Part shown: one piece after another, positions 307 through 58,811 of the stretch | Layout: every line of letters starts with the position of its first letter | How positions within the stretch are numbered: position 1 is the stretch's first letter | Made by a program: the position numbers and the translations under genes | NCBI GenBank assembly: GCA_007376805.1 | Contig: VMGX01000001.1 | Span: 1,034 to 65,033 of the forward strand | Direction of reading: 5' to 3' | DNA length: 64,000 nt | Source of the DNA: Parcubacteria group bacterium Athens0714_16 | GTDB lineage: Bacteria; Patescibacteriota; Minisyncoccia; Phycocordibacterales; 21-14-all-36-13 | The notes under the pieces: model-generated | Told to the model about the DNA's origin: nothing | What the model saw: the letters and a program-made list of their open reading frames with translations, nothing else | The model's database searches: none

Positions 307-1221
307 CTATTTCTTGCCTAATAATATATTTATGGCCTTTGTCACAATTGGAAGAATATCATCATAAAGATTAAGGTCAACTATCTCTTTTAATTTAAAC
401 CATTTTGCATTATCAAGCCCACCGGATTTTCCAAGTTTTAATTCTTTATATTTTGCTTCTCCAAGAAAATACATAACCTGTTTTCTTATCTTTCCTTTTT
501 CTGGATCTGATGCAATATATTCATTGCTTCCTAATTTTTCTTTTATTTTTATATCAACACCTATTTCTTCTTTTATTTCTCTTACAGTCGCTTCTTTTTC
601 ATCTTCTCCTGCCTCTATTCTTCCTTTTGATAATGTCCAATGCCCAAACACATCATGCACAAATGCAAGATATATTTCATTTCCGGCCTGCGCGGGCAAA
701 TCTTTTTTGGCATAAACAACCGAACCACCAAGTTTTTCTATTGGCATTTCTTCATATGGAATATCTTTAATTTTTTTCTTTGTAGTTTCTTCCTTCCCTG
801 GTTCACCCAATTCTTTATATACAGAACCCAAAACTCCATTAACAAATCTACCACTACTTTCACCACCAAATCCTTTTGCAAGTTCTATGGATTCATTTAT
901 AGCAACCTTCGGAGGGACTTCTTTTCTACTAGAAAAAAGAAGTTCATACAAACCAATTCTTAAAATATTTCTATCAATAACCGCTATTTTTTCAATAGGC
1001 CATTCTGGGGCAGCCTTTGTTATGATACCGTCAAGTTTGGGTAAATTTTTAACAACACCTTTTGCAAGGTTTTTTATAAATTCACCATCATCAACACCAG
1101 GAGCAAACTCTTCTATATTTCGATTAATAATTTCATCCAATTCTTTTGTTTTTTTCCCAGAAAAATCCCACTCAAAAAGAGATTGCATTACTATTGACCG
1201 CGAAAGATGTCTGTTTGCCAT
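307..1221 (-). CDS. nusB: NusB antitermination factor fused to a C-terminal Nudix hydrolase domain
   Basis: N-terminal ~150 aa are NusB-like (RSIVMQSLFEWDF, RNILRIGLYELLF, PPKVAINESIELAK). After a Lys/Glu linker there is a Nudix fold with box GRIEAGEDEKEATVREIKEEIGV. Confidence 0.75.
   Translation of the reverse strand: MANRHLSRSIVMQSLFEWDFSGKKTKELDEIINRNIEEFAPGVDDGEFIKNLAKGVVKNLPKLDGIITKAAPEWPIEKIAVIDRNILRIGLYELLFSSRKEVPPKVAINESIELAKGFGGESSGRFVNGVLGSVYKELGEPGKEETTKKKIKDIPYEEMPIEKLGGSVVYAKKDLPAQAGNEIYLAFVHDVFGHWTLSKGRIEAGEDEKEATVREIKEEIGVDIKIKEKLGSNEYIASDPEKGKIRKQVMYFLGEAKYKELKLGKSGGLDNAKWFKLKEIVDLNLYDDILPIVTKAINILLGKK
683..706. repeat. GC-rich hairpin module H3 inside the nusB-Nudix CDS
   Basis: ccggcctgcgcgggcaaatctttt, encodes KKDLPAQAG on the minus strand. 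Confidence 0.8.
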
Positions 1222-2480: not shown

Positions 2481-3153
2481 TTACTTAATTTTGAAGTTTT
2501 TTAGGTATGTTTTTCTGTGTATTTTAGAAATTCCATATTTTTTTATATTTTTAATATGCAAAGCAGTCCCGTATCCCTTATGTTTGTGAAATTCATATTT
2601 TGGATATTTTTTTGATAAATCGCACATAACTTTGTCACGAGAGACTTTTGCAACAATTGATGCCAGAGCAATTACCTTTTCTTTCTCGTCACCTTTTATT
2701 ATTGTTTTTTGATTTAAAAATTTTTCAGGAGCTTTTATTCCTCCGTCTAACAAAACTCTGCATGTTTTAGGGTTGATATTTTCCAAACATTTATTAATTG
2801 CCTTTTGAATTGATTTTGAAATTCCTATTTTATCTATTTCTGAATTACTTACGTAAGCAATTTTATAATCAACAATCCCTTTCTTTTTCAGTTCTTTAAT
2901 TTTCTCAAACCACTCCTCTCTTTTTCCTGACGATAATTGTTTTGAATCCTTAACTCCACTAAAAACAGACATTTTAAAATTTTTTGCATTTATCTGCGCC
3001 TGCCCCGTAGCCAGAGCGTAACTCTGTCATCTGCGTTAATCTGCGATTTATTGGAACAATAAATGCACAAACACAAACAGGTCCAGCCAACGGTCCTCTC
3101 CCAACTTCATCAATTCCAATTAGATATTTTATTTTTCTAGAATTTGTGATCAT
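2481..3153 (-). pseudogene. rnhB: Ribonuclease HII split into two frames by a GC-rich repeat insertion and frameshift
   Basis: The N-terminal fragment from ATG 3151-3153 reads MITNSRKIKYLIGIDEVGRGPLAGPVCVCAFIV (catalytic DEVGRG) and then runs through the CGCAGAT-repeat insert to TAA at 2974-2976. The C-terminal ORF 2481..2972 (GVKDSKQLS...HKHKGYGT) is in the +1 frame. The break lies next to an A6/T4 homopolymer. Confidence 0.7.
2992..3047. repeat. CGCAGAT-repeat-containing GC-rich insert inside rnhB
   Basis: atctgcg occurs three times (2992, 3029, 3040) around gcctgccccgtagccagagcg. Confidence 0.75.
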
Positions 3154-3227
3154 ACTTAAATTATAAAGTTTTGAACCAGAAACTCAAAATTAAAAAAAAC
3201 TAACCAACTAAACTAAATATAAATCTC

Positions 3228-3770: not shown

Positions 3771-6700
3771 ATGAATCCCAAATTTACACATCTCCACACT
3801 CACTCTCATTACAGCTTGCTTAATGCATTACCAAAAATACCGGAACTTGTTTCTGCTACAAAAGAAAAAAATATGAGCGCCGTTGCTCTTACTGATAACG
3901 GAAATCTTTATGGTGCAATTGAATTTTATAAAGAATGTAAAAAAGAAAACATAAAACCAATTATAGGTGTTGATTTTTATGTTGCACTTCGCACACGGCA
4001 CGATAGACAACCAGGGATTGATAGTAAAAGATACAGATTGGTGTTGTTAGCAAAAAATCATGATGGATATAAAAATTTAATAAAATTAGTAAGTGATTCA
4101 CATCTTACTGGTTTCTATTACAAACCAAGAATAGACAAAGAACTAATGAAAAAATATTCTGAAGGACTTATTGCAATAATTCCATCTTTTAGTGGAGAAA
4201 TAATAGAAAAAGTAAAAAACAGTGATTTTGAAACAGCAAAGAAAATTTTAAATGAGTATGAAGAAATTTATGGAAAAGAAAATTTGTTTGTAGAAATTAC
4301 ACATCACCCAGAAATTGACGGACATAATTTTATAACGAAAAAAACAATTGAATTTGCAAAAGACCTGTCCGCCTCTGGCGGAAGTGGAGCAAATTTAGTG
4401 GCATCACATGATGTTTATTATATACACCCAGAAGATAGAGAGGCACGAAATACACTTTTATCTATACAAACAAATCTTGACTTTGGCTCCAATAAACGAC
4501 TAACAAGCGAAGATGAGGACTTTTCTTTTATAGGACAAGAACAGGCAGAAAAATATTTTGCTGAAATTCCCGAAGCACTTGAAAACACACAAAAAATTTC
4601 TAACATGTGTAATTTAGAAATTAGTCTTGGTGGCTGGATCTTCCCTGAGGCAAAATCTACCAACGGATTAAACCATGATGACGAATTGTATAAATTAATA
4701 TACGACGGTTTAATTGAAAGAAAATTGGAAAAAACAGAAGAAGTTTTAAAAAGAATTGAATACGAGTATGGAATAATAAAAAAGAAAGGATATTGTCCAT
4801 ACTTTTTGGTTGTTAGTGATTTATTAAAATTCGCATTAAAAAATAACATCTTTACAAACACCAGGGGTTCTGCTGCTGGCTCACTTGTTTCTTATTTAAT
4901 TGGAATAACAAATATAAATCCTCTTGAATATCAAATTCCATTTGAAAGATTTTTAAATCCCGATAGGCCTTCGCTCCCCGATATAGATATTGATATGGCA
5001 GATAACAGGCGAGATGAAATGGTTCAATATGCAAAAGAAAAATATGGAGAAGACAGAGTCGCACAAATTGGGACATTCGGAACAATGGCAGCACGAGGAG
5101 CAATTCGTGACACAGCACGAGCATTAGGTTATCAATATGAAATCGGAGATAAAATATCAAAACAGATTCCTCTTGGGAAACAAGGTTTCCCAATGACAAT
5201 AGATAGAGCACTGGATGAAAATTCTGATTTGAAAAAAATGTACGCGACAGATAAAGACGTTAAAAAAATTGTAGATATGGCAAGAAAAATTGAAGGATGT
5301 GCAAGACACATTTCCGTTCATGCAGCAGGTATCGTTATCTCTCCAATTCCAGTAACAGAGTTCACACCAATTCAATTTGATCCGAAGGGTGGAAAATTAA
5401 TAACACAATATGATATGTATTCTATAGACCCCGACTATGGTGGTGTAGGACTTTTAAAATTTGATTTTCTTGGTTTAAAAAATCTCTCAATACTCGCAAG
5501 CTCAGTTGATTTAGTAAAAAAAATAAAAGGTGTGGATATTGATATACAAAATATTCAAATTGATGACAAAAAAACATTTGAGATGTTGGCTCGTGGAGAA
5601 ACTATGGGCGTATTTCAAATGGGTAGTGATGGGATGACAAAATATTTAAAAGATTTAAGACCGACCGAAATAAGAGATATAAACGCAATGATTGCTCTTT
5701 ATCGTCCCGGCCCGATGGCTTTTATTCCTGAATATATTAAAAGAAAAAGAAATCCTAAACTTGTAAAATATATTGACGAGAGATTAAGAAAAATTCTTGA
5801 AAAAACTTATGGGATTTTGATTTACCAGGACGATATTCTACTTATAGTCACAGAGCTTGCTGGCTATTCTTGGGCAGAGGCAGATAAATTTAGAAAAGCT
5901 GTTGGGAAAAAAATTCCACAAGAGATGCAAGCGCAAAAAGAAAAGTTCACCAGTGGTTGTATCAAAAACGGGATGAAACCAGATGTTGCAAAACAACTTT
6001 GGGAAATGATTGAAACATTCGCGGCATATGGTTTTAATAAGGCCCATTCTGTAAGTTACGGCAGAGTTACATATCAAACTGCTTACATGAAAGCTAATTT
6101 CCCTGTTATTTATATGTCCGCACTTCTAACCGCAGATGCAGGAGATGTTGAAAAAATTTCCGAAACAATTAACGAATGTAAAAGAATGGGGATTGAAGTT
6201 TTGCCCCCAAACATAAATGAAAGTTTTGGTAATTTTACTGTTATAGAAGAAGACGGAAAAGACAAAATTCGTTTTGGACTTTACAGTATCAAAAACTTTG
6301 GGGAAGGTATCGCTGATAAAATTATTACTACAAGAAAAGAGAGCGGTAGATTTAACTCGCTGGAAGATTTTTTAAATAAAGTAAAAGATAAAAATGTAAA
6401 TAAAAAATCTTTAGAAGCACTCATAAAATGTGGTGCCATGGATGAACTTGGTGAACGAGGACAAATGTTTGAAAATGTAGAAGATTTATTGTTGTATCAT
6501 CGCGAAGGGAAAAAAACAGACGAATCACAGGAGTCGTTGTTTGGTTTGATGGCAGATAGTTCAACAATACCAAAACTAAAACTCAATGAATCAATGCCCG
6601 CAACACAAACTGATAAGCTAACATGGGAAAAGGAACTGCTTGGTTTATACATTTCCGGACACCCACTTGATAAATTCAAAAACCAGCTCGAAAAAAGACA

Positions 6701-16151: not shown

Positions 16152-17147
16152 TTAATACAAAGTAAGATTTATAAGATGATTTATAAAACTTGGTAAACCT
16201 ACCCCAACCTCATTTAATTCTCTAACGAAAGGAGCATTTTCAGACAGGTCTGGCAAAGCATTCGTTTCCAACAAATAAATTCCCCTTCTTGGAGAAACAA
16301 TAAAATCAGATCTTGAGTAGTGTCTAAGATTCAAAACATTATGTGCTTTGTTCGCTATTTTTTGTACATCTTTTTTTAAACTTATGGGCAAACTTGTTGG
16401 ACATGAAAATGTTGTACCACCCGCCTGAGCGGGCAAGTCTTTTTTAGAATAATCAAAAAAATCTTCACCCTTATTTAATATTATTTCCAAAGGCATCAAC
16501 TCATATGTTTCTTCATTTCTAAAATTATCAATTACTCCACATGTGATTTGTTTTCCTTCTATAAATTCCTCAACTAAAATAGTCTCATATTTATTTAATA
16601 AATCTCCTAAAGAGAAAAGTAATGTATCGAAATCTCTCGCAACAAAAATATCATTTGAAGAGCCCCCAGAAACAGGCTTCATAATTAATGGTATACCAAA
16701 TCCCCTAAATATATCCAAAGCAATTTTTTCAACCTCCAAATCATTTTTTACAATTATATATCTAGGTGTTTTTAGCCCCGCATTTTCAAATATTTTTTTT
16801 GCAAAATATTTATTAAAACTCATAAGTGATGGCAACGCCCGAGAACCTGTGTATGGTATAGAAAAATTATTAAGAACTCTCTGTAGAGAACCGTCCTCAC
16901 CAAAATCACCGTGTATAGAATTTATAACTAAATCTACATCTCTCAATATTTTTTCTGGACTTGTTTGAACACCTCTAAGATTCCAAGATAAGTCTTTTGA
17001 AATAATTACATCTTTGACGATGTATTCTTTGGGTATATTTTTAATAAAGGATACGCCTGTATTTAAAGATAGTCCGCGTTCTTTCCCCGGACCACCCCGA
17101 AGAAGACCAATTTTTATTTCTTTTCCAGAATCAATAAAGTTTTTCAT
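16152..17147 (-). CDS. ddl: D-alanine--D-alanine ligase
   Basis: ATP-grasp fold (IPLIMKPVSGGSSNDIFV, LVEEFIEGKQITCGVI) and C-terminal SRSDFIV...YLLETNALP. Confidence 0.9.
   Translation of the reverse strand: MKNFIDSGKEIKIGLLRGGPGKERGLSLNTGVSFIKNIPKEYIVKDVIISKDLSWNLRGVQTSPEKILRDVDLVINSIHGDFGEDGSLQRVLNNFSIPYTGSRALPSLMSFNKYFAKKIFENAGLKTPRYIIVKNDLEVEKIALDIFRGFGIPLIMKPVSGGSSNDIFVARDFDTLLFSLGDLLNKYETILVEEFIEGKQITCGVIDNFRNEETYELMPLEIILNKGEDFFDYSKKDLPAQAGGTTFSCPTSLPISLKKDVQKIANKAHNVLNLRHYSRSDFIVSPRRGIYLLETNALPDLSENAPFVRELNEVGVGLPSFINHLINLTLY
16420..16443. repeat. GC-rich hairpin module H3 inside the ddl CDS
   Basis: cccgcctgagcgggcaagtctttt, 21/24 identical to 683..706, and also encodes KKDLPAQAG. 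Confidence 0.8.
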
Positions 17148-19179: not shown

Positions 19180-20466
19180 TTAATATTTTTCACCTTTCAA
19201 ATATTTTCCCAAAAAATCTCTTTTAAATTCAAAAAAAGTATCGTCTAAGATAGATTGTCTCATTTTTTTAACAAGATTAACTATAAAATATAAATTGTGT
19301 ATGGAAGCGAGTGTTGCACCAAGCATTTCTTTTGATCTAAAAAGATGTGATAAATATGCCTTAGTGTAGCTTGCCCCGCCATGGCGGGATGAACATGTGT
19401 AACAATCACAATTTTCATCGAGTTTTGAAAAATCATTTTTATACTTAGCATTTAATATATTTATCTTTCCACTCGTTGTATACATAGTTCCATTTCTAGC
19501 AATTCTTGTTGGTGCAACACAATCAAACGTGTCTATTCCATTTTCAACGCCTATAAATAAATCTATCGGTTCGCCTATACCCAAAAGATGTCTAGATTTT
19601 TCTTCTGGCAAAATTGAATTAATCCAAACAAGTGATTTATCTATGTCATTTTTCTCAAATGAACCACCTATACCAAATCCATTGAAATCCATCGCTCCGA
19701 TTGTTTTTGCACTTTCCTTACGTAGTTTTTCATTATTACCACCTTGAACTATGCCATAAATCGCAGATGGACGCGGATCAGACGCAGATTTACGCAGATC
19801 AAAATTTAATTTTTTATGATGTATGAGACATCTGTCTGCCCAGCGGTGTGTTCTATTCATTGCCTCTTCAAGATATTTTTCAGAGTTGTTTGGAGACGTA
19901 CATTCATCAAACGCAAAAATTATATCCGCACCTATATTATGTTGAATTTCAATTGATTTTTCCGGAGTAAAAAAATGTGGACTCCCATCTATGTGTGATT
20001 TAAATTCGACTCCTTCTTCTTTTATTTTTATACTTCCCTTTTGTAAAAATTCTTCGTTTTTATAAATTTTTTTTGCTAATTCATCTACATCATTTGTTTG
20101 GTTATTTATTTTACTAACATCAGAATCAAAACCAGAACCAAGAGAAAATACTTGAAAACCACCTGAGTCAGTTATTGTCGGCCCGTCCCAATTCATAAAT
20201 TTTCCTAAACCACCGGCAGATTTTACAATTTTATCTCCGGGTTCCAAATATAAATGATAAGTATTGGCCAAAACAACTTCTGCACCTAAATCTTTTACTT
20301 GCTCAGGTGTGAGTGCTTTAACAGTTGCCTTTGTTCCCACAACAGAAAAAGCTGGAGTTTTTATTATTCCATGCGATGTTTTTATTTCGCCAACTCTTCC
20401 TAAATATTCTTTTCCGCCAGAGGCGGATCCGCCTCTGGCGGAAATTCTTTTTTCTATTCTAAACAT
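19180..20466 (-). CDS. tgt: Queuine tRNA-ribosyltransferase, enlarged by three repeat-derived inserts
   Basis: TPAFSVVGTKATVKALTPEQVKDLGAEVVLANTYHLYLEPG, FTDSGGFQVFSL, GIGGSF and CDCYTC zinc site. It is 428 aa, against my recollection of ~375 aa for E. coli Tgt. Confidence 0.9.
   Translation of the reverse strand: MFRIEKRISARGGSASGGKEYLGRVGEIKTSHGIIKTPAFSVVGTKATVKALTPEQVKDLGAEVVLANTYHLYLEPGDKIVKSAGGLGKFMNWDGPTITDSGGFQVFSLGSGFDSDVSKINNQTNDVDELAKKIYKNEEFLQKGSIKIKEEGVEFKSHIDGSPHFFTPEKSIEIQHNIGADIIFAFDECTSPNNSEKYLEEAMNRTHRWADRCLIHHKKLNFDLRKSASDPRPSAIYGIVQGGNNEKLRKESAKTIGAMDFNGFGIGGSFEKNDIDKSLVWINSILPEEKSRHLLGIGEPIDLFIGVENGIDTFDCVAPTRIARNGTMYTTSGKINILNAKYKNDFSKLDENCDCYTCSSRHGGASYTKAYLSHLFRSKEMLGATLASIHNLYFIVNLVKKMRQSILDDTFFEFKRDFLGKYLKGEKY
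19375..19388. repeat. GC palindrome inside the tgt CDS
   Basis: cccgccatggcggg (perfect), encodes RHGGA. Confidence 0.7.
19762..19800. repeat. CGCAGAT 10-nt periodic repeat inside the tgt CDS
   Basis: cgcagatggacgcggatcagacgcagatttacgcagatc. Confidence 0.8.
20413..20442. repeat. Two abutting H4 hairpins inside the tgt CDS
   Basis: tccgccagaggcgga + tccgcctctggcgga, encodes SARGGSASGG. Confidence 0.8.
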
Positions 20467-32711: not shown

Positions 32712-33698
32712 TCAATTTTTTAAATACTCGTGAATTATTTTTTCAACATCTTTTGCATTCTTTGTTTCCATTAATTTTGTTCTTAATTCTTTTGCGCCAT
32801 CCCAACCGTTTACATACGCTTTAAAATGTTTTTTCATAACATCAAAATGTTTCCTGCCTGCGCAGGCGGGTCCATCCCCAAAAATTTTTACAAAAAGTTT
32901 TGTGTGTTCTAAAAGAATTTTTAACTTTTGTTCTGTTGTCGGTTCAAAATTTTCATTCAAAAGCCACGGTTTACCAAAAAATCCTCTGCCTATCATTATT
33001 CCATCACAACCAGTTTCTTTGGCACGCGCCAATCCTTCTTTTCTGCTTTTTACATCCCCGTTTCCTATTATCAAAGTTTTTGATTTTAAACTATCACGAA
33101 TCTCAACGGCGCACATCACGACAGACCAATCGGCCGGAACTTTTGACATTTCTTTTTTGGTTCGCGCATGAATCGTAATCGTGACAGGATTTTCTGCGAG
33201 TAATTCTGGAAGCCATTTTTCAATTTCATTTTTGTTATAACCAATTCGTGTCTTTATAGACACCGGAATTTCTCCCGCCCCTTCTTTTGCAGAACAAATT
33301 ATTTGGCGAGCGAGTTTTGGATTTTTTATAAGTTCCGCCCCTGCTCCTTGTTTCAAAACACTTTTGTCTGGACATCCCATATTTATATCAATTCCATCAA
33401 AACCCATTTTTACAACAAGTTCACATGCCTTTTTTATTGTTTCTGGTTTTGAACCAAATAATTGTGCAACAATTGGTCTTTCGGTTTCAGAAAAAATTAA
33501 ATGTTGTTTTAAAACATCTTTTCCTTTGCTTAAAAGCCCATCAGCGGAAACAAATTCCGTAAACATAACGTCTGGCCCGCCTACGGACGGGTTAAATTTT
33601 CCATATTTAGCAATAATTTGTCTAAATGGTGCATCTGTAACATCATACATTGGTGCAACACAAAAAAATGGTTTTTTTAGTTTTGTCCAAAAAATCAT
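32712..33698 (-). CDS. dus: tRNA-dihydrouridine synthase
   Basis: APMYDVTDAPFR, GIDINMGCP, ITIHARTK, GNGDV motifs. Confidence 0.9.
   Translation of the reverse strand: MIFWTKLKKPFFCVAPMYDVTDAPFRQIIAKYGKFNPSVGGPDVMFTEFVSADGLLSKGKDVLKQHLIFSETERPIVAQLFGSKPETIKKACELVVKMGFDGIDINMGCPDKSVLKQGAGAELIKNPKLARQIICSAKEGAGEIPVSIKTRIGYNKNEIEKWLPELLAENPVTITIHARTKKEMSKVPADWSVVMCAVEIRDSLKSKTLIIGNGDVKSRKEGLARAKETGCDGIMIGRGFFGKPWLLNENFEPTTEQKLKILLEHTKLFVKIFGDGPACAGRKHFDVMKKHFKAYVNGWDGAKELRTKLMETKNAKDVEKIIHEYLKN
32853..32870. repeat. GC-rich hairpin H3 inside the dus CDS
   Basis: cctgcctgcgcaggcggg, encodes GPACAGR. Confidence 0.7.
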
Positions 33699-37719: not shown

Positions 37720-37762
37720 ACGCAGATATACGCGGATAGCAAACCGCAGATCAATGCAGATA
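37720..37762. repeat. CGCAGAT periodic repeat, intergenic copy upstream of topA
   Basis: acgcagatatacgcggatagcaaaccgcagatcaatgcagata. Confidence 0.75.
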
Positions 37763-57256: not shown

Positions 57257-57338
57257 GCCCGGGTGGCGGAACTGGTATACGCGCACGACTTAAAATCGTG
57301 TCCTGTATGGGATGCGGGTTCGATTCCCGCCCCGGGCA
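57257..57338 (+). tRNA. tRNA-Leu(UAA)
   Basis: GCCCGGG UG GCG GAACUGGUAUA CGC G CACGA CUUAAAA UCGUG UCCUGUAUGGGAU GCGGG UUCGAUU CCCGC CCCGGGC A. Confidence 0.9.
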
Positions 57339-57507
57339 CAAAGTAATTGGGGAATAAGCAAATTTCCTCCAGAGACGGACAAGTATTTGCTTATGTCGGG
57401 AATCGAATGATTTTTTATGTTGAGCGTAGCGAAACAAAAAATCACGGGTGAGCAAAGCGAAATTCCCCCTGCCTGCGCAGGCAGGGCCCCGGGCACAAAG
57501 TGATTGG
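57339..57507 (+). repeat. tRNA-Leu(UAA) 3'-flank element ending in a duplicate of the tRNA 3' end
   Basis: 57329..57350 (gccccgggcacaaagtaattgg) recurs at 57486..57507 with 1 mismatch. The interior has stems ATAAGCAAAT/ATTTGCTTAT, TGATTTTTT/AAAAAATCA and GGGAAT/ATTCCC. Confidence 0.8.
57467..57486. repeat. GC-rich hairpin H3 (perfect 7-bp stem) inside the tRNA-Leu(UAA) flank element
   Basis: ccctgcctgcgcaggcaggg. Confidence 0.75.
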
Positions 57508-57562: not shown

Positions 57563-57635
57563 CCGCCCGTAGCTCAGTTGGTAGAGCAGCTGCCTCTTAA
57601 GCAGACGGTCGTAGGTTCAAATCCTACCGGGCGGA
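57563..57635 (+). tRNA. tRNA-Lys(CUU), C1:G72 acceptor
   Basis: CCGCCCG UA GCUC AGUUGGUA GAGC A GCUGC CUCUUAA GCAGA CGGUC GUAGG UUCAAAU CCUAC CGGGCGG A. Confidence 0.85.
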
Positions 57636-57778
57636 CATGAAGTGTCCTGCGCGAGAAAACAAATTTATTTGTTTTTGTGTAGGATTTGAAAGGAATTTCG
57701 TTATTGAGTCCGAGTTTTTGCAAGGACGAAATCGAAATTCACCAGCGACCGTTGGGCGAAAATCCTACCGGGCGGACA
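57636..57778 (+). repeat. tRNA-Lys 3'-flank element ending in a duplicate of the tRNA 3' end
   Basis: 57619..57637 (aaatcctaccgggcggaca) recurs exactly at 57760..57778. Confidence 0.85.
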
Positions 57779-58526: not shown

Positions 58527-58607
58527 GCCGGGGTGGCGAAATGGTAGACGCGCTACGCTTAGGACGTAGTTTCGAAAGGAGTGGAGGTTCAAGTCCTCTC
58601 CCCGGCA
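58527..58607 (+). tRNA. tRNA-Leu(UAG)
   Basis: GCCGGGG UG GCG AAAUGGUAGA CGC G CUACG CUUAGGA CGUAG UUUCGAAAGGAGU GGAGG UUCAAGU CCUCU CCCCGGC A. Confidence 0.9.
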
Positions 58608-58758
58608 CATGAACGAAGTGAGAGTGACGAGAGTAAACAAATTTATTTGTTTGCGAGAGAGGATTTGAAAATCTTTTCGTTATTTATGAAGAGCTTTGCT
58701 CTGAATAAATCGAAAAGATGAACAGAATCTGTAAGATTCAAGTCCTCTCCCCGGCACC
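58608..58758 (+). repeat. tRNA-Leu(UAG) 3'-flank element ending in a duplicate of the tRNA 3' end (distal copy followed by CCA)
   Basis: 58588..58608 (ttcaagtcctctccccggcac) recurs exactly at 58738..58758. Homologous to the Lys element. Confidence 0.85.
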
Positions 58759-58811
58759 AGTAGTAACTTGTTGAAAATTGAAAATTAAAAAATTAAAATA
58801 AGAAATTTGCT

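Follow-up and report, generated by a model that had tools for sequence, protein, structure and literature searches.

GC-rich in-frame segments of a Patescibacterial tgt gene as probable insertions of dispersed mini-elements

The window analysed here, a 64-kb stretch of DNA with a G+C content of 31.5%, carries on its reverse strand the gene tgt for a queuine/guanine tRNA-ribosyltransferase (Tgt), and this gene contains three short GC-rich segments, all of them in frame. The Tgt of the window is 100% identical to protein P0001 of Parcubacteria group bacterium Athens0714_16, a metagenome-assembled genome (MAG) of the candidate phyla radiation (CPR)/Patescibacteria. The match to the Pfam family TGT covers residues 23–422 (E = 5e-135), indicating a complete Tgt, and the protein also matches bacterial Tgt chains of the PDB (E about 1e-92) and can be aligned to the Tgt of Z. 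mobilis. The features expected of a Tgt are present (TGT domain, catalytic Asp residues, Cys3-His zinc site), and the catalytic and zinc-binding residues D100, D187, D302, C353, C355, C358 and H390 are invariant in an alignment of 99 sequences. The three segments, which an earlier note made from the sequence alone (the original prediction) had placed in frame within the gene, are found in the sequence as follows.

19180..20466, reverse strand: tgt, 428 amino acids (from the list of open reading frames (ORFs), Pfam TGT and PDB matches)
20413..20442, reverse strand: insert 1, an element of family A, codons 9–18, SARGGSASGG
19762..19797, reverse strand: insert 2, an element of family 2, codons 224–235, peptide LRKSASDPRPSA
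19372..19389, reverse strand: insert 3, a hairpin insertion of 18 nt, codons 360–365, SRHGGA

Insert 1 (TCCGCCAGAGGCGGA followed by TCCGCCTCTGGCGGA) is a perfect 30-nt palindrome composed of two abutting 15-nt hairpins, TCCGCC-AGA-GGCGGA then TCCGCC-TCT-GGCGGA (general form TCCGCC-NNN-GGCGGA). The two hairpins and the peptide SARGGSASGG had been recognized in the original prediction, which put the extra length at about 11 residues; relative to close relatives it is exactly 10 residues (30 nt). The 36 nt of insert 2 read CTGCGT-AAA-TCTGCG-TCT-GAT-CCGCGT-CCA-TCTGCG on the coding strand and hold the four CGCAGAT/CGCGGAT units (direct TCYGCGT repeats) previously noted from position 19762, spaced 10–11 nt apart. 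Insert 3 contains the hairpin CCCGCCATGGCGGG (CCCGCC-AT-GGCGGG) at 19375–19388, the palindrome already pointed out beside the zinc site, and its peptide SRHGGA starts one residue past the zinc ligand C358, the third Cys of the CxCxxC motif. Such GC islands do stand out from the AT-rich DNA around them, as had been claimed: the window holds 31 GC-rich hairpins (stem of at least 5 bp) as compared with 3.8 ± 2.2 in shuffled sequences, an about eight-fold excess.

The expectation that the inserts lie in loops is borne out by an AlphaFold2 model of the protein, built on an alignment of 99 sequences (mean predicted local distance difference test score (pLDDT) 85, predicted template modelling score (pTM) 0.86), in which all three inserts occupy predicted loops or helix ends, with the frame kept. 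Specifically, insert 1 falls in a turn or loop joining strands 2–7 and 24–30 (pLDDT < 50), insert 2 at the end of helix 196–227 and in the coil after it, and insert 3 in the coil 349–367 between the CxCxxC motif and the helix with the fourth zinc ligand. The residues N-terminal of insert 1 are conserved among homologues and structured in the model, which places insert 1 inside the coding part of the gene rather than in a leader. In the Z. mobilis Tgt the site of insert 3 comes before the helix with the aromatic dimer-interface residues, and by analogy an effect of insert 3 on Tgt dimerization is conceivable. As RNA, insert 1 is predicted to form a 15-bp hairpin (-30.6 kcal/mol, z = -6.8) beginning 22 nt after the ATG, which, judging from this predicted fold, could influence translation. 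A fourth insertion relative to the Z. mobilis Tgt, AT-rich and of ~33 residues, occupies residues 112–146 (window 20029–20133); it also occurs in Patescibacterial relatives, where its length varies, and the model predicts disorder for it (pLDDT < 50).

A Tgt protein search gave relatives P0002–P0008 at 79–86% identity and many others at 55–68%, and the relatives' DNA was aligned codon by codon, with the insert comparisons spanning relatives at 65–86% identity (fetched loci are labelled L001, L002 and so on). Insert 1 is a clean 30-nt presence/absence difference that falls after codon 8 (ATT/TTA/TTG) and before a codon AAA. The empty site, AAA TTR^AAA AAY, is seen in five close relatives (L004, L005, L007, L008, L009); the copy in L003 is a half one, with just one 15-nt unit, that in L001 is decayed (TCC TCC CGA GGC GGG TCC ATC TTA GGT GGA), and the distant relatives L010 and L134–L137 have it intact or nearly so. 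The 36-nt unit of insert 2 is present in the window, L004 and L005, degenerate in L008, and missing from L003, L009 and the outgroup L010, which has nothing at the site. The loop that holds it is a nest of insertions, as L001 and L007 carry at this site an extra 30-nt hairpin (TTGGAAG-CGAAR-CTTCCAA) enclosed in a near-duplication of 15 nt that copies the start of the family 2 unit, and L007 carries a further 60-nt multi-hairpin segment within the 36-nt unit. These nested insertions lie at ~10640–10750 in L001 and at ~10640–10830 in L007, and the 30-nt hairpin belongs to a family with the peptide HLEAKLPSEN that is found in about ten other Tgts too. Insert 3 is a net difference of 18 nt between an empty site TGT AAA^AAT TAT and a filled site TGT TCA TCC CGC CAT GGC GGG GCA AGC TAC, the latter present in L001, L004, L007, L010 and L135 and decayed in L008; the close relatives L003, L005 and L009, like most distant Tgts, do not have the insert.

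Among the 120 best Tgt homologues surveyed, 13 have the insert 1 peptide in the form SA[KR]GGSASGG, and 23–24 have a zinc-loop insert of hairpin type (S/L-P-R-H/Q-G-G-A-S or a variant whose loop is longer); in different lineages the two internal Tgt sites are also taken up by further insert families, unrelated to these. None of the three inserts is present in most of the 120, nor in the PDB chains of Tgt from Z. mobilis, T. maritima and eukaryotes. Counted approximately on a neighbour-joining tree, the state of insert 1 changes at least 10 times and that of the zinc-loop insert at least 17 times, slightly fewer than the null means of 12.6 (p about 0.01) and 21.3 (p about 0.002), which suggests some inheritance together with much gain or loss. 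The ortholog alignment thus sustains the earlier view of these segments as inserts: all three are length-variable indels, the opposite of ancestral sequence conserved in length.

We consider it likely that the three segments are insertions of codon-compatible, loop-sited, non-autonomous GC-rich mini-elements of 18, 30 and 36 nt, similar in kind to repetitive extragenic palindromic sequences (REPs) and Rickettsia palindromic elements (RPEs). Alternatively, the segments might be ancestral functional parts of the Patescibacterial Tgt that were lost in some lineages, their likeness to repeats being coincidental. The constant codon boundary of insert 1 and its K/R and S loops in divergent Tgts would suit such an origin, as would the weak but significant phylogenetic clustering of presence just described (p about 0.01 and 0.002). 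However, the lack of the inserts in most of the 120 homologues and in the PDB chains speaks against it, as do the predicted disorder of insert 1 and the near-equal frequency of non-synonymous and synonymous changes in its stems (see below), which points to constraint on DNA rather than peptide. The same DNA units moreover occur in unrelated genes and non-coding DNA, and these dispersed copies have already largely refuted an ancestral origin, which we regard as very improbable.

Insertion of mini-elements is in keeping with the dispersal of the units themselves. That the motifs would be repeated elsewhere proved correct for inserts 1 and 2, which represent dispersed families found in many genes and genomes. 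Family A, the 30-nt double hairpin of insert 1, was sought in one genome per GTDB species (596 Gb) with the pattern TCCGCCNNNGGCGGNTCCGCCNNNGGCGG, which has 23 fixed bases; at least 120 loci were found, as against a chance expectation roughly estimated at well below one. Its consensus is TT-TCCGCC-NRA-GGCGGA-TCCGCC-TYN-GGCGGA-AA. Among the matches listed, to which the following figures for family A as a whole refer, hosts include many Patescibacteria classes, Omnitrophota, Kiritimatiellae, Verrucomicrobiota, Planctomycetes and Lentisphaerae, as well as Ignavibacteriota (on 1.6-Mb long-read contigs), Chloroflexota, Bacteroidota, and Firmicutes-type and proteobacterial MAGs, the taxon names being the labels of the deposited MAGs; the G+C content of the loci lies between 30% and 70%. 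The family's unit is the doublet: there are 119 doublets and few true singletons, and what look like singletons are mostly doublets in which one arm has mutated. As in REPs, the unit is a short GC-rich palindrome in many copies, with stems of 6 bp and loops of 3 nt. In nearly all copies the first loop is N-R-A and the second T-Y-N, a fixed order by which the element reads alike on either strand, and 25 of the 119 are perfect palindromes.

Copies cease to resemble each other 2–3 nt beyond the 30-mer, in flanks that are rich in T on the left side and in A on the right side: 86% of left flanks, and 79% of right flanks once reverse-complemented, have T at position -2. A flanking direct repeat or target-site duplication is missing in 106 of 117 copies, unlike what defines miniature inverted-repeat transposable elements. 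The tgt empty sites already carry TT...AAA flanks, which indicates that at tgt these bases reflect target preference and are not part of the element. Three copies occur within 6.6 kb in L033, where the repeat unit is only about 34–36 nt. More than half of the doublets (71 of 119) lie in ORFs of at least 200 amino acids, and 59 of these 71 are read in frame 0 as S-A-x-G-G-S-A-x-G-G (binomial p = 8e-18); such in-frame hosts include rpoB, rpoC, dnaE, PheRS-beta (two copies), a class II aminoacyl-tRNA synthetase, Mfd, an S41 peptidase (two copies) and an amylase-family protein.

The window itself holds one double copy of family A, that in tgt, and one single copy:

4368..4385, forward strand: single family A hairpin TCCGCCTCTGGCGGA (+AGT) in dnaE (gene assigned by Pfam), SASGGS, a 6-codon insertion

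Here the 15-mer (4368–4382) is identical to that of tgt and is likewise in frame 0, and the dnaE homologues of L067 and L128 have a 6-residue gap at the hairpin site; the pair with L067 was rejected as a clean filled/empty comparison, the site lying in a variable region. The recurrence in dnaE that had been claimed is therefore real, for the first motif, and so is that upstream of topA and in rnhB (below), for the second; for the third motif no dispersed copy was found in the window.

Taken together, such mini-elements populate Patescibacteria genomes, and at least two families (A and 2) occur in many other phyla, making the phenomenon far wider than the original prediction supposed. The elements are seamless, lack target-site duplications, have lengths that are multiples of three, and are both intergenic and genic. 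Genic copies are overwhelmingly in one frame, which gives a small flexible Ser/Ala/Gly-rich peptide in loops of host proteins; family 2, by contrast, is read in several frames.

Other observations on family A concern its surroundings and its relatives. As a candidate parent element, L016 (a Kiritimatiellae MAG) was considered and rejected, as its two copies 1.8 kb apart flank ordinary genes and no transposase. There the 30-mer forms part of an intergenic repeat of 184 nt (4569–4752 and 6390–6572) whose translation gives HPERSEEPALSEVEGI...PRYARNDNKDG-type peptides, which we take to resemble other widespread repeats of environmental genomes. A role as DNA-uptake sequence was likewise rejected, the density of about one copy per 30 kb of window being far too low. 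In the Ignavibacteriota loci L042 (~6021), L057 (~390) and L088 (~2838) the 30-nt element sits at the same place, ...Y.VQF[SAxGGSAxGG]..A..L.SG(V/I)Y..., within a C-terminal motif that seems to us to resemble a type IX secretion system (T9SS) sorting domain, although Pfam reported no such domain in these three loci at the threshold used. Double hairpins of like architecture with other stems also exist, for example TGGGAGC-CGA-GCTCCCA CG TGGGAGC-TCG-GCTCCCA within mreC in L137 (6607–6642) and CCACCC-TAC-GGGTGG CCACCC-GTA-GGGTGG in L080 (755–784). A scan of the fetched loci for generic double hairpins returned only a handful, with stems CCACCC, TGGGAGC, ACAAGGT, ACTATCC and TTGGGTTT.

The stems of insert 1 are conserved at the level of DNA. 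Six tgt genes, whose proteins are about 60–65% identical, were compared at the third codon base of identical Ser/Ala/Gly residues only. The same third base is found in 329 of 922 pairwise comparisons outside insert 1 (36%), in 90 of 105 for its stem codons (86%; Fisher p = 2e-23 for stem versus outside) and in 5 of 16 for its loop codons (31%), and changes within the stems are about as frequently non-synonymous as synonymous. This suggests either that the hairpin arms rather than the peptide are conserved, or that the copies are young, and it is the main observation that neutral vertical inheritance of an insert leaves unexplained.

Such conservation raises the question of whether the hairpins are functional nucleic-acid signals under selection (host-protein binding sites, mRNA-stability or translation-pausing structures, or chromosome-organization or self-marking sites), with codon compatibility an adaptation that permits placement within genes. 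Beyond the 86% versus 36% identity of third positions in stems whose loops drift, this explanation would account for the near-identity of family A across phyla and from 30% to 70% GC, for its fixed, strand-symmetric architecture of an NRA loop and then a TYN loop, for the predicted -30.6 kcal/mol hairpin 22 nt past the tgt start codon, and for the phasing of family 2 units at ~10.5 nt, which is like that of protein-binding-site arrays. Yet copies are lost or decay freely in the close relatives L001, L003 and L008 with no compensation seen there, they are scattered over unrelated genes and intergenic DNA, and their density is low, with one double and one single family A copy per 64 kb of window. 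Rfam searches of the tgt region (by E-value) and of the whole window (at the gathering threshold) matched tRNAs only, and we know of no protein that associates with the elements. A signal function is, on balance, unlikely, though it deserves to be kept in mind.

Family 2, to which insert 2 belongs, is no palindrome; it is built from four TCYGCGT units in direct orientation, with a phasing of 10, 11 and 10 nt. The pattern CYGCGTNNNTCYGCGTCYNNTCYGCGTNNNTCYGCG occurs at three independent sites of the fetched loci: the tgt loop of insert 2, the tgt zinc-loop of L134, where it lies inside the loop of an older hairpin insert, and an unrelated ORF in L030. In the metagenome collection at least 120 loci were found. 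Tallied over ORFs of at least 150 amino acids among the matches listed, family 2 is read in four of the six frames, with 29 copies reading [LP]RxSASx[LP]RxSA, 22 ADLRGLDADLRG-like, 18 TQTDADKTQ-like and 12 RRLTQTGRR-like, while 40 copies fall outside long ORFs. Two looser relatives occur elsewhere in the window:

37721..37757, forward strand: CGCAGAT-type cluster, looser and family 2-like, intergenic, upstream of topA (assigned by Pfam)
2992..3046, reverse strand: CGCAGAT-type units and further GC-rich sequence in rnhB, where the reading frame is broken

The rnhB gene (2481–3170, reverse strand) is split, with the N-terminal DEVGRG part in one frame and the remainder in another; its downstream ORF (2481–2972) matches only positions 34–196 of Pfam RNase_HII. 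The insert between the two halves is GC-rich and repeat-laden, with CGCAGAT units and a small extra hairpin, and one A fewer in the run AAAAAATTTTAAAATG would restore the frame; an assembly error, a pseudogene and recoding are all possible explanations of the split.

A third family in the window, family C, is the 18-nt palindrome CCTGCCTGCGCAGGCAGG, of which PACAGR and LPAQAG are two reading frames. Its copies are as follows.

32853..32870, reverse strand: family C in dus, CCTGCCTGCGCAGGCGGG on the forward strand, PACAGR
16419..16436, reverse strand: diverged family C in ddl, in the other frame, LPAQAG
682..699, reverse strand: diverged family C in the nusB-NUDIX gene (assigned by Pfam), LPAQAG
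57467..57486, intergenic: family C as a perfect 20-nt palindrome CCCTGCCTGCGCAGGCAGGG, downstream of tRNA-Leu(UAA)

The last of these had been listed in the original prediction among the copies of the tgt motifs, downstream of a tRNA-Tyr-like gene; the neighbour is in fact tRNA-Leu(UAA), and the family (C, CCTGCCTGCGCAGGCAGG) differs from the third tgt motif. Three further family C copies lie in a 15.5-kb locus, L007. The L007 orthologue of dus, 81% identical, is empty at the window site and carries a clean, seamless 18-nt CCTGCCTGCGCAGGCAGG at a different site, TGG^GAT, where the window gene is empty. Family C at two positions in dus orthologues requires two insertion events, and this is the clearest evidence of independent insertion. 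The different insert families at shared Tgt sites and the nested insertions of L001 and L007 speak for it as well. In ddl there is a 6-residue gap in L008 and CCTGCCTATGCAGGCAGG at the same site in L007, and the L067 homologue of the nusB-NUDIX gene likewise has a 6-residue gap. Every other GC-rich hairpin tested within a coding sequence of the window (dnaE, ddl, dus, nusB-NUDIX) is thus a 6-codon insertion relative to homologues. In the nusB-NUDIX ORF (307–1221, reverse strand) NusB spans residues 7–136 and NUDIX residues 193–285, and the family C insert falls in the linker between the two domains. Insert 3 of tgt is of the same general kind as this 18-nt palindrome; it is established as an indel-polymorphic hairpin only, and its membership of a dispersed family is not demonstrated.

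Might replication and repair alone generate and homogenize such inserts, by quasi-palindrome template switching, slipped-strand duplication, or gene conversion between short GC-rich repeats, with permissive protein loops accumulating them? The lack of target-site duplications is compatible with such processes, as are the half, double and nested forms at single sites (the single unit of L003, the nested segments of L001 and L007 with their 15-nt near-duplication), and perfect arms are what quasi-palindrome correction is expected to yield. In the window copy of dus the flanking codons are replaced, such that it is not a clean insertion, and the same holds for the codons around insert 3; in addition, one ORF of L049 contains many different hairpin sequences. 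On the other hand, de novo processes, which copy the AT-rich DNA nearby, would not yield an identical 30-mer at 120 or more loci of different phyla, nor one and the same 18-mer at two sites in dus, and the sharp edges of the clean insertions together with the T/A flank preference suggest a defined unit. We therefore think it quite unlikely that these processes are the source of the inserts.

Returning to insertion of mini-elements as the probable explanation, the elements would behave as selfish or near-neutral DNA, in the manner of RPEs, of REPs and of the paired REPs known as REPINs, and would be mobilized in trans. The most plausible candidate for the enzyme would be a hairpin-recognizing, single-strand transposase of the HUH/Y1 type, because transposition of this kind excises precisely and creates no duplication, and would yield the hairpin structure, the exact empty sites and the lack of target duplications seen here. 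Selection may then purge copies that break the frame or the protein structure, and repeated gain and loss would yield the patchy distribution among Tgt orthologues, while the stems might be kept by recent insertion, by copy correction or by constraint on the hairpin.

Several points weigh against this explanation. First, all 13 Tgt copies of insert 1 lie at exactly one codon boundary, and their loops are limited to K/R and mostly S, although family A at large shows K, R, G, E and Q in the first loop and F, S, L and Y in the second among the matches listed. The invariant position and restricted loops favour one old insertion over independent hits, and for this insert a single old insertion followed by many precise losses, or selection at the peptide level, fits better than repeated random insertion. 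If insert 1 is indeed old, its intact stems call for more than selfish spread. Second, insert 3 (CCCCGCC-loop-GGCGGGG) has no demonstrated dispersed copy, and both of its flanking codons are altered too (AAA^AAT when empty as opposed to TCA...AGC when filled). Third, no homologue of a Y1 transposase was found in the 64-kb window, and the Y1_Tnp genes near tgt in L137 and L049, which are flanked by their own unrelated hairpins, gave no link to the elements; the symmetric constraint on both flanks of family A and its lack of a GTAG/CGTC tag weigh against a simple Y1 assignment as well. Nor was a phage vector evident, as only 3 family A matches occur in the 2.9 million viral contigs of IMG/VR. 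Finally, the gain and loss counts come from a simple neighbour-joining tree, and support for mobility is entirely comparative. Two further candidates were set aside: an apparent target-site duplication at insert 1, whose flanking AAAGAAT repeats match K-rich codons of the empty sites and are best seen as low-complexity coincidence, and an adapter, linker or assembly artefact, which is at odds with the same codon position in independent projects, with decayed and half versions, and with megabase long-read contigs.

The two Y1_Tnp genes (IS200/RAYT-like, RAYT denoting REP-associated tyrosine transposase) are of interest in their own right. That of L137 (3205–3935) has its own hairpin, CTGCAAGG-CAAGA-CCTTGCAG, on both sides, and that of L049 (380–1105) has TGWGCAA-TGGGAATCT-TTGCWCA on both sides; this is a REPtron-like arrangement in Patescibacteria.

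More tentatively, the 30-nt double hairpin, and perhaps the 36-nt unit, might represent an undescribed cross-phylum class of coding-adapted mini-elements, spread horizontally by dedicated machinery or kept as a signal for a host factor, and a source of loop insertions in essential proteins. This joint proposal is possible rather than probable, and its parts are no firmer: the class might be characterized by strand symmetry, a length in multiples of three, an almost complete lack of stops in six frames and seamless insertion at T-rich^A-rich sites; horizontal spread might occur among co-habiting, mostly uncultivated bacteria; and RpoB, RpoC, DnaE, aminoacyl-tRNA synthetases and Tgt might be among the proteins that gain loops in this way.

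In-frame palindromic repeats have so far been regarded mainly as a peculiarity of Rickettsia, together with some intragenic REPs. What is new here is the much smaller size of the units (6, 10 and 12 codons), their presence in CPR bacteria, and the occurrence of the same 30-mer in essential genes of many phyla. If this holds generally, such elements offer a concrete and testable origin for the short insertions in loops by which orthologous proteins differ. They can also confound alignment, phylogeny and gene calling in MAGs (the rnhB frameshift being an example), may be used as markers of recent genome dynamics in unculturable organisms, and, through the conservation of their stems at the nucleotide level, raise the question of what recognizes or restores those stems.

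Two features outside the families described above were also observed. First, the tRNA genes Leu(UAA), Lys(CUU) and Leu(UAG), in the regions 57257–57505, 57563–57777 and 58527–58760, each have a duplicate of their own 3′-end ~120–150 nt downstream (for example CCCCGGGCACAAAGTRATTGG). The segments between the three tRNAs and their duplicates share a conserved ~125-nt element, ...AAACAAATTTATTTGTTT...AGGATTTGAAA...TTTCGTTATTGAG...CGAAA..., the end of which copies the T-arm/acceptor 3′ half, and this looks like a small family of tRNA-3′-end-targeting inserts or of tRNA-like downstream RNAs. Second, a single called gene of 771 amino acids in L134 (5073–7388) combines tRNA-synt_2b/HGTP_anticodon with MreB_Mbl, which are two overlapping genes in L135 and L137, such that a fusion or an assembly frameshift is possible.

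How do these elements compare with known systems? In the literature searched, the coverage of which is incomplete, no description of the 30-, 36- or 18-nt families was found, and the peptide GGSASGG and the DNA core GGCGGATCCGCC turned up only in cloning primers, linkers or unrelated papers. The RPEs of Rickettsia (Ogata et al., 2000, 2002, via PMC10969869) are in-frame, palindromic elements of multiple families and about 100–150 bp. Measured against that account, the likeness extends to palindromic repeats in an AT-rich reduced genome, in frame in unrelated housekeeping genes, translated as fold-compatible extra peptide, in several families and with no transposase of their own. The resemblance to RPEs suggested in the original prediction thus holds as an analogy (in-frame, palindromic, tolerated), except that insert 2 is no palindrome, and it does not extend to membership: in-frame insertion in unrelated genes is found here too, but the units are of 18, 30 and 36 nt rather than about 100–150 bp, with at least two families spread across phyla rather than coming from Rickettsia. 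Family A is, in addition, perfectly symmetric between strands, with an identical peptide whichever way round it is inserted. Homology to RPE families is implausible because of the difference in size, and there is no hint of sequence relatedness.

REPs and REPINs, including intragenic GTAG-/CGTC-tagged REPs, are G-C-rich hairpins of 20–40 nt, often inverted doublets, that are thought to be mobilized in trans by Y1 (RAYT) transposases; a minority are intragenic, often in replication and repair genes, where they encode 20–30 extra residues (Di Nocera et al., 2013, PMC3733652). The elements described here are similarly short G-C-rich hairpins with an inverted doublet unit and some copies in genes. 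They differ in that the flank profile of family A has no GTAG/CGTC and only T-rich and A-rich positions, that at least half of the sampled family A copies are in long ORFs (71 of 119 listed) and hence are not mainly extragenic, that family A is conserved across phyla whereas REPs are species-specific, and that neither the window nor L137 and L049 yielded a cognate RAYT with these hairpins on its flanks.

The GC clusters of yeast mitochondria, with the in-frame inserts of var1 and the bypassed byp elements of Magnusiomyces (PMC8811140), are likewise short, mobile GC-rich palindromes in a very AT-rich genome that can merge, nest and insert in frame, and their loops evolve faster than their stems. 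GC clusters are, however, mitochondrial and have terminal AG/TAG repeats read as target duplications, of which there are none here, and, in contrast to byp elements, there is no sign of translational bypassing at these loci, the rnhB frameshift being the sole hint. PARCELs, short for palindromic amphipathic repeat coding elements, are dyad-symmetric coding repeats with a punctate distribution across clades (PMC2996958), and share with our elements the dyad-symmetric coding sequence, the patchy occurrence in distant clades, and the proposal of horizontal transfer together with intragenomic shuffling. PARCEL units are of 75 nt and are strung together in long tandem arrays, which account for entire domains in accessory or surface ORFs, whereas the elements here are single 18–36-nt insertions in conserved enzymes.

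Single-strand peel-and-paste transposition of the IS200/IS605 type involves hairpin ends, makes no target-site duplication and leaves seamless empty sites. Known elements derived from IS200/IS605 are longer, have asymmetric, distinct left and right ends and go in on the 3′ side of one particular tetra- or pentanucleotide; here, in contrast, both flanks are symmetrically constrained and the unit is only 30 nt. The mini-elements of tgt and its counterparts in other genes thus work like RPEs, REPs, GC clusters and PARCELs, and fall outside each of these by a defining feature, be it size, tags, target duplications or arrays.

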